A stretch of 15,087 nt of DNA, from positions 1-15,087 of the IMG/VR virus record IMGVR_UViG_2698536392_000024; one strand, given 5' to 3'. The notes beneath the pieces were generated by a model that had not been told where the DNA came from, made no database searches, and saw nothing but the letters and a program-made list of their open reading frames with translations. Within the stretch, counting starts at the first letter, position 1; every line of letters starts with the position of its first letter. A program made the translations under genes and the position numbers. Source of the DNA: a virus (Duplodnaviria > Heunggongvirae > Uroviricota > Caudoviricetes). Below, piece by piece: positions 12,575 to 12,872 of this stretch.

Positions 12575-12673
12575 TGAGTGATAGTCACTCAACTGGATTC
12601 CAGTATAATCACCAAGTGGAATCCACTTCAAGCATTTTGTTTTGATCTTTTTCGTGTATACTGGATTCCAGTA
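12575..12673. promoter_or_regulatory. Divergent promoter/operator region: three 11-bp palindromes plus a 17-bp palindrome
   Basis: CTGGATTCCAG at 12593-12603 and 12661-12671, GTGGAATCCAC at 12616-12626, TGAGTGA-tag-TCACTCA at 12575-12591. Plus-strand -10-like TATACT at 12657-12662 overlaps the third palindrome; minus-strand TTGAAG-N18-TATACT promoter candidate (plus coordinates about 12603-12631) has palindromes in its spacer and at its start site. Confidence 0.5.
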
Positions 12674-12692
12674 ATCACAAAGGAAACCAGAA

Positions 12693-12872
12693 ATGGAAAG
12701 AGACCATATCAATAACAAATCACAGAAATTACAGGCTCGCGCCCCGCATGAAGTTGTTGAGGCAATGGAGCAAGTCAAAGAAACGGGCGAGAGTACTGCG
12801 CAGTTTATCGTTACAGCCATGCGTGGCGAGATCAAACGCCGCCAGCGCCGCAAGGCCAAAGAGCAGAAGTAA
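12693..12872 (+). CDS. Ribbon-helix-helix (Arc/Mnt/CopG-like) DNA-binding protein; candidate repressor of the element
   Basis: 59-aa ORF found by manual translation (below track threshold); AGGAAA RBS 7 nt upstream of ATG; KLQARAPHEVVEAMEQVKETGESTAQFIVTAMRGEIKRR follows the beta-strand / helix / helix pattern of Arc (RWPREVLDLVRKVAEENGRSVNSEIYQRVMESFKK, recalled from memory). Confidence 0.6.
   Translation: MERDHINNKSQKLQARAPHEVVEAMEQVKETGESTAQFIVTAMRGEIKRRQRRKAKEQK

Follow-up and report, generated by a model that had tools for sequence, protein, structure and literature searches.

Which protein keeps the phage-inducible chromosomal islands (PICIs) of Gram-negative bacteria silent? Their global repressor has been called unclear (PMC6092414), and the activator AlpA is the only regulator of these islands known from experiment. 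We took up the question at a short locus in a 15,087-bp stretch of viral DNA (positions 1 to 15,087 of IMG/VR record IMGVR_UViG_2698536392_000024; the whole stretch is called the window below), where a first-pass annotation had marked a 59-aa gene and three palindromes as a candidate ribbon-helix-helix (RHH) repressor with its operators. The open reading frame (ORF) and the three boxes are real features, far beyond chance. From their conservation and co-variation in related loci, we consider it probable, though well short of certain, that they form a satellite-specific repressor/operator cassette that silences the replication and packaging operon, regulates itself and exists in many interchangeable specificities.

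Three boxes over two predicted back-to-back promoters

The ORF occupies 12693-12872 on the plus strand, with an ATG start and an AGGA Shine-Dalgarno sequence ~9 nt upstream. Gene names follow the RefSeq annotation of the identical region in Escherichia coli strain 2013C-4830, whose chromosome matched the 1.1 kb around the ORF and boxes with 100% identity. In that annotation the ORF is the sole plus-strand gene of the regulatory region. As first described, it diverges from a minus-strand operon, and the genes facing it are an Icd-like gene, a hypothetical gene, a DUF4222 gene and a frameshifted primase gene.

Three 11-bp palindromes precede the ORF, with centres 23 and 45 bp apart as had been claimed: CTGGATTCCAG at 12593-12603, GTGGAATCCAC at 12616-12626 and CTGGATTCCAG again at 12661-12671. 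The predicted operator boxes within them are 9 bp long, namely box 1 (TGGATTCCA, 12594-12602), box 2 (TGGAATCCA, 12617-12625) and box 3 (TGGATTCCA, 12662-12670). Exact TGGAWTCCA was found three times in the window, all inside one 77-bp stretch, against an expectation of 0.13 copies, and none of 200 dinucleotide-preserving shuffles reached three. Copies with one mismatch elsewhere in the window were at chance level.

The boxes are locked to two promoters. A promoter scan detected the leftward promoter P− (minus strand, 12602-12631), which is the TTGAAG-N18-TATACT sequence proposed earlier. Its −35 runs from 12631 to 12626 and, after an 18-nt spacer, its −10 from 12607 to 12602, with a predicted start at ~12595. 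Box 2 lies in the spacer and abuts the −35. The first base of box 1 is the last base of the −10, and the box spans the predicted start, a position kept in relatives. The −10 TATACT of the gene's own promoter, P+, is at 12657-12662 on the plus strand (predicted start ~12669), and its last T is also the first base of box 3, which confirms the overlap suggested for this palindrome. A T-rich tract of 24 bp (12633-12656), nearly invariant in length across loci, separates the two promoters. The scan also returned a plus-strand promoter, TAGTCA-16-TATAAT (12582-12609), which was set aside; the final T of its hexamer is not kept in other loci, whereas the minus-strand reading is. Because the plus-strand reading of this hexamer by box 1 is not conserved, the leftward promoter was taken as the real one. 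In the window lineage a repeat reaches past the boxes, ACTGGATTCCAGTA(TA)ATCAC(C/A)AAG, present twice (12592-12616 and 12660-12682) and not seen in other genera.

Related loci were taken from one-genome-per-species contigs (12), exact-protein look-ups (8) and IMG/VR (80). A common layout was shared by ~90 loci in ~15 genera, for example Escherichia, Serratia, Xenorhabdus, Proteus, Morganella, Pectobacterium, Cedecea and Citrobacter. In window terms the order is box 1, TATAA, ~6 nt, box 2, TTCAA, the 24-nt T-rich tract, GTATACT, box 3, ~20 nt and ATG. In nearly all loci, the window included, the first base of box 3 is at −31 relative to the ATG (two loci, in which another start codon was called, have −34 and −46). 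Boxes 2 and 3 are 45 bp apart wherever the boxes were called correctly; in L019, where the script picked the wrong ones, they are in the usual places by eye. Boxes 1 and 2 are mostly 23 bp apart, and distances of 22, 25, 26 and 35 bp also occur. A consensus of 30 non-redundant loci, less than 90% identical to each other, kept the TG and CA of each box, the TTGA of the P− −35, its −10 as TAtAnT, the T-tract and the plus-strand GTATACT, the last nearly invariant.

The layout includes two model islands. EcCICFT073, the prototype Gram-negative PICI, carries the cassette with boxes TGTGGCCCA and TGTCCCCCA and a second small ORF, and the capsid-forming PICI of O157 carries it as well. Relatives are found across the Enterobacterales. 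The exceptions were three Salmonella loci (L016-L018) and a few loci in which the motif or boxes defied automatic extraction. In the Salmonella loci (2700-3830) the family member lies 3′ of a small uncalled ORF and 5′ of BrnT/BrnA toxin-antitoxin genes, and the three-box array is absent. By eye, the uncalled ORF looks like an Arc-like RHH protein. In three further loci (L019-L021) a 120-aa ORF (3679-4041 in L019 and L020 coordinates) with weak DUF3950 and Terminase_2 matches stands between the repressor gene and alpA. The island in these loci adjoins a small-terminase gene that is truncated, a sign that it may be a PICI embedded in its helper and able to rebuild the phage gene it interrupts.

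A small protein that changes together with its boxes

The protein belongs to NCBIfam NF041551 (YlcI_YnfO_N), with 72.3 bits against a cut-off of 30 (E 2.4e-20, residues 9-50). RefSeq labels it a YlcI/YnfO family protein without a function, and its PHROGs family is of unknown function. Its predicted layout is a strand at about residues 9-17, helix A at 19-28, a turn G32-E33-S34 and helix B at 35-58 with a basic tail. This is the RHH order of strand, helix, G-x-S/T/N turn and helix within ~45 residues. The family alignment shows polar/apolar alternation along K9-S-Q-K-L-Q-A-R-A17, then P18, a helix, a G-E-S/T turn and a second helix. N7, K9, S10, R16 and the basic tail GEIKRRQR are invariant, and P18 is nearly so. 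An AlphaFold2 monomer model (pLDDT 85) placed helices at 19-28 and 35-58 on either side of G32-E33-S34, and the modelled fold was similar to solved RHH proteins. The Pfam Arc and Mnt models gave no match at E values up to 1. The description Arc/Mnt-like was thus half right: by modelled fold and sequence pattern the protein appears to be RHH, and it is not a member of the Arc or Mnt family.

A word-based search returned relatives in 108 clusters, all from Enterobacterales, and a hidden Markov model search of 1.84 billion representatives returned only 92, so the family is small. An identical 59-aa protein was present on 277 contigs, and a tblastn search of 50,697 phage records found no relative of the satellite-type protein. 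NF041551 also includes YlcI of the DLP12 prophage and YnfO of the Qin prophage in E. coli K-12, and K-12 YlcI has the RHH sequence pattern. Unlike the satellite gene, K-12 ylcI adjoins cos, diverges from the small terminase gene nohD across the cos region (L107, 1252-1835) and has no three-box array. This arrangement hints at a DNA-binding role near cos in the prophage branch of the family.

The protein and the boxes co-vary. The five central bases of the box differ by lineage, and all three boxes of one locus change in concert. We found at least nine box cores, each paired with one sequence of the predicted strand (residues 9-17). Strand KSQK(L/V/I)Q(A/T)RA goes with TGGAnTCCA, KSQKMSARV with TGGCACCCA, KSQQLNARF with TGAATCGCA, KSKKLEARV with TGTCAGCCA and KSQALKARV, the strand of EcCICFT073, with TGTGGCCCA. 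KSQSVTARI is paired with TGTCTTACA, box 1 being inverted. KSTQ(L/I)ASRV is paired with TGCTTAGCA or TGCTAACCA, KS(R/Q)QKTARV with TGACTCCCA or TGACTTGCA, and KSKKMQARV with TGTGCTCCA. Palindromic boxes, as described in the window, hold for its lineage and some other classes, and several cores have symmetric arms (TGG/CCA, TGT/ACA, TGC/GCA); the general form is a TG-N5-CA repeat, mostly in direct orientation.

Among 47 distinct protein/box combinations, residues 11, 12, 14 and 17 were wholly fixed by box class, and residue 14 was the most informative (2.45 of 3.43 bits). The variable positions of helix A and the tail had a far weaker tie to box class. Residues S10 and R16 do not vary, and neither do the flanking TG and CA of the box. 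When pairs with the same core were taken from 61 distinct intergenic regions, the four strand residues were common to 217 of 217 pairs and the AlpA cluster to 13 of 196. AlpA alleles, clustered at 90% identity, were shuffled with respect to box class: the window allele occurred with three classes and others with three or four. AlpA was ruled out as the box-binding factor on this ground. The Icd-like protein, product of the first leftward gene, was ruled out likewise, one of its clusters occurring with six box classes.

Identity to EcCICFT073 was uneven along the locus. It was 87-100% in the leader (12460-12549), fell to ~60% over the operators and the gene's first two thirds (12550-12819), and rose to 93-97% at 12820-12879, the C-terminal tail. 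The operators plus the gene's N-terminal two thirds thus look like a mosaic cassette of at least nine types, which satellites exchange without regard to their alpA, int or icd-like genes. In this behaviour the cassette resembles lambdoid phage immunity regions. Two satellites in the single genome of Xenorhabdus innexi DSM 16336 (L005 and L008) carry cassettes of different specificity, TGGAGTACA and TGGCACCCA. This pair, a single example, fits orthogonal immunity groups. At least nine matched protein/operator variants that are few strand residues apart also provide a data set from which an RHH recognition code could be read, and they could supply small orthogonal repressors.

A proposed circuit and the readings that compete with it

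From these computed regularities we infer DNA binding, dimerisation, repression and autoregulation. Most likely the RHH protein, as a dimer, recognises each of the three 9-bp TG-N5-CA boxes. Indirectly, the co-variation of strand residues 11, 12, 14 and 17 with the box cores and the symmetric arms of several cores agree with a homodimer whose paired strands would read the major groove. With boxes 1 and 2 occupied, at the P− start site and spacer, RNA polymerase would be blocked and the replication and packaging genes would stay silent. The operon placed under P− is long: the leader, the isrK and C4 RNAs, the icd-like, DUF4222 and primase genes and, further on, the SSB and capsid genes. Occupation of box 3 at the P+ start site would give negative autoregulation. 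Repression of P− with autoregulation is the most economical reading because a box covers each −10/+1 junction and another lies in the P− spacer. The cassette is a candidate for the master switch, as first proposed, and if it is the repressor, the silent state of widespread gene-transfer elements would be directly testable.

Two additions to this scheme are more speculative. In the quiescent island the repressor and the C4/isrK RNA layer of the window might silence P− jointly. On helper induction, AlpA-dependent transcription might cross the convergent repressor unit, impair repressor synthesis and read into the operon; such antisense read-through could reconcile a repressor with induction by overexpressed AlpA. 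AlpA is necessary for induction, and its overexpression induces EcCICFT073 (PMC6092414).

Several observations weigh against a repressor of this kind. It is uncertain whether P+ is active, as no −35 can be recognised for it. The AlphaFold2 monomer lacks the N-terminal strand and has low-confidence helical turns at residues 8-16. No Pfam RHH family scored above threshold, the best being PSK_trans_fac, an RHH-type antitoxin family (E 0.027, below the cut-off), and Pfam scans of the distant relatives drawn from the 1.84 billion representatives gave no RHH family match. A search of the PDB with the family profile found no significant relative (best 3no7_A, E 0.31). Central box bases still vary within the KSQK-Q-ARA type (TGGATTCCA, TGGCATCCA, TGGAGTACA), so the strand alone does not set specificity. 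Because the gene sits next to its operators, linkage by itself should produce part of the co-variation, an objection that the shuffled AlpA and Icd-like alleles meet for these two neighbours and no others. Finally, since AlpA overexpression alone induces EcCICFT073, a repressor would not act alone and is perhaps not the main control (PMC6092414).

The closest competitor, which we think unlikely, accepts the protein as the box-binding factor and gives it a task other than plain maintenance repression: a Mnt-like two-way switch, a Cro-like factor that appears after induction and turns down the early promoter, or chiefly a device against cross-activation between co-resident satellites. Mnt of phage P22 represses one promoter and activates its own. 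Action from an upstream site is conceivable, with box 3 ~69 bp before the P− start and box 2 ~48 bp before that of P+, and a promoter that lacks a −35, like P+, might need help. The many specificity classes, two of them in the one X. innexi genome, and the fact that the inducer required by experiment is AlpA and not a repressor (PMC6092414), would also agree with such a task. However, a box over the −10/+1 of both promoters together with a box in the P− spacer is classic repression geometry, and it is kept in nearly all loci.

It is considerably less probable that the ORF is unexpressed or non-functional and the boxes are relics. The island is indeed damaged, with primase and large terminase frameshifted and the icd-like region partly a pseudogene. 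Yet the ORF, its Shine-Dalgarno sequence, the −10 and all three boxes are intact and the protein is identical on 277 contigs, and a repressor may be just what a domesticated remnant retains.

We give very little weight to the proposal that the small ORF is unrelated to the boxes and that these are bound by AlpA, by the primase or another replication initiator at origin iterons, or by a helper-phage protein. AlpA/Vis-type proteins bind repeated sites near promoters in P4-like elements, P4 alpha binds iterons, and the non-palindromic box classes are direct repeats. Nevertheless, the strand residues of the small protein track the boxes in every same-core pair while AlpA and Icd-like alleles are shuffled, and if the factor came from the helper phage, the co-variation with a satellite gene would be left unexplained. 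Origin iterons were ruled out, there being no further copies of the box in the island, unlike at an origin. Equally improbable is a type II toxin-antitoxin module made of the RHH gene and the 59-aa ORF downstream of it, with boxes that only autoregulate the module: that ORF is present in just 32 of 92 loci and matches no known toxin family, alpA converges 265-360 bp from the RHH start in many loci and leaves no space for a partner, and two of the three boxes are on the promoter of the opposite operon.

Among known systems, the nearest analogue of the proposed repressor is Mnt/Arc of P22, while Stl comes nearest to it in role. In P22 immI (Mnt and Arc, promoters Pant and Pmnt), as in the cassette, a tiny RHH protein is divergent from an operon, an operator lies over a promoter, the promoters are back to back and self-regulation is part of the design, here as a prediction. 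The likeness extends to the controlled operon, which in related satellites opens with icd-like, Bro-N or antirepressor-type genes. P22 immI has a single operator of 17-21 bp and the pair Mnt and Arc, whereas the cassette has three separate 9-bp boxes at fixed distances of 23 and 45 bp, one protein and a phage satellite as its host. The omega repressor of plasmid pSM19035 is an RHH regulator, as are CopG, ParG and MetJ. The heptads of omega are contiguous, whereas the boxes of the window have gaps of 14 and 36 bp between them and are locked to promoter elements.

A likeness to the Stl-type repressors of Gram-positive islands had been suggested, and it stands for the proposed role only. Like Stl/Rpr of Staphylococcus aureus pathogenicity islands, the protein would silence the island as a repressor encoded by the satellite itself, divergent from the replication and packaging operon. 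Stl proteins are larger, of the helix-turn-helix type, and have a domain for binding a helper-phage inducer, whereas the window protein is a 59-aa RHH candidate. The orientation also differs: Stl is on the int side and co-oriented with int (PMC6092414), and here int and alpA are on the operon strand and converge on the gene. A "putative repressor" described for EcCIMP1 is an unrelated PerC-family protein.

On the sequence evidence the cassette is probably the protein repressor of Gram-negative satellites. A wider claim, which we advance tentatively and would not yet favour, casts the RHH protein as the master repressor so far missing from Gram-negative and capsid-forming PICIs, a functional counterpart of Stl. 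Its interchangeable strand/operator cassettes would then define at least nine orthogonal immunity groups and permit several satellites to coexist in one cell, and induction would proceed by a helper-phage protein acting on the invariant C-terminal basic helix (GEIKRRQR) or by AlpA-driven convergent transcription that shuts off the repressor gene. A 2025 preprint remarks that the gene downstream of alpA varies and has no known function. In the literature covered, which leaves out most subscription journals, we found no account of the function of this protein and none linking Gram-negative PICIs to an RHH regulator.

The island, its alpA side and the leader RNAs

The island was placed between clpS and cspD according to RefSeq. 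Its minus strand reads integrase (13849-15087), alpA (13221-13430), a gap, icd-like fragments, a hypothetical gene, DUF4222, frameshifted primase, ssb, perC and a head module. The head module, on the same strand, comprises capsid, protease, portal, connectors, HNH, small terminase and a frameshifted large terminase. The combination of int, alpA and primase with a head-gene set of its own (capsid, protease, portal, connector, HNH and terminase) in ~15 kb is that of the capsid-forming PICI type (10.1101/2022.09.08.507074), and the element is not of the P4 type. It is a decayed capsid-forming PICI. Because the primase (9532-11345) and the large terminase (~1322-2982) are frameshifted in RefSeq, the satellite is probably no longer mobile, its regulatory cassette being intact. 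Allele-like DNA, near relatives included, was found in 488 of 5,426 complete E. coli genomes (at least 9%), chromosomal in every case.

The AlpA gene, assigned by Pfam (Phage_AlpA, 9e-16) and RefSeq, encodes an activator/excisionase-type regulator and is convergent with the repressor unit. Between alpA and the repressor gene lies the second small ORF, also 59 aa (12930-13109, plus strand), 3′ of the repressor gene and probably co-transcribed with it. It matches PHROG 21027, of unknown function (1e-29), and homologues are annotated in O157 and CFT073. It is an accessory gene, and neither Pfam nor PHROGs matched it to a known toxin family, the partner expected in a type II toxin-antitoxin pair. 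The two-gene unit ends at an intrinsic terminator (13174-13203, plus strand). Read from the other side it lacks a U-run and could let alpA transcripts pass, and a terminator scan found no strong minus-strand terminator between alpA and P−.

The predicted P− transcript begins with structured RNA. An inverted repeat, TTGAGTGA-tag-TCACTCAA (12574-12592, minus strand), lies just 3′ of box 1 at the 5′ end of the transcript. Its arms co-vary across loci, the summed stability is −193 kcal/mol for the minus-strand RNA against −159 kcal/mol, and in several loci G.U pairs form on the minus strand only. It is probably a 5′ RNA hairpin, although it could be a fourth protein-binding palindrome. Since the hairpin is more stable as minus-strand RNA, a leftward start at box 1 gains support. 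A second leader hairpin (12532-12566, minus strand) has compensatory changes in 11 of 13 pairs (RNAalifold, 24 loci). After it come a single-stranded CUCUAACCAC, nearly invariant, and a third small hairpin near the ribosome-binding site. The second hairpin and CUCUAACCAC may form a regulatory RNA element of the early transcript.

Further along the leader, Rfam identified two RNAs of the P4/P1 immunity type above their gathering scores. An isrK-type RNA, similar to the seqA target of P4, is at 12313-12388 (minus strand; RF01394, 69 bits against 50) and has an intrinsic terminator at 12335..12317 with a U-run. A C4/CI-type antisense immunity RNA is at 12204-12291 (minus strand; RF01695, 72.6 bits against 45). 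The c4-a1b1 target at 12350-12401 was weak (28 bits against 46.7). An icd-like gene follows the C4 RNA, as in the design of P1 immI (c4 RNA, icd, ant) and of P4 with its CI RNA and seqA/seqC. The window alpA, early promoter and primase likewise mirror the order of vis, PLE and alpha in P4. P4 immunity is RNA-based and the P1 promoter is under the unrelated C1, whereas the window promoter carries a dedicated RHH/operator cassette. The first-pass annotation had set the RNA immunity of P4 against a protein repressor here; the contrast is incomplete, as one leftward transcript also carries isrK and C4 and both layers coexist in the window.

RNA immunity of this design has already been noted in some Gram-negative PICIs (PMC10111431). 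In 12 loci of other genera, Rfam found neither C4 nor isrK, only int-alpA RNA and tRNAs, so the RNA layer is optional and not an obligate partner of the cassette. In the O157 and CFT073 islands the leader runs directly into the icd-like gene, without the RNA module. In the window the first 18 codons of the icd-like frame (MLNHTTHPQGRDSHNLNK) match the beginning of Icd-like genes that are intact in other islands, and from this match the RNA module appears to have been inserted after codon 18.

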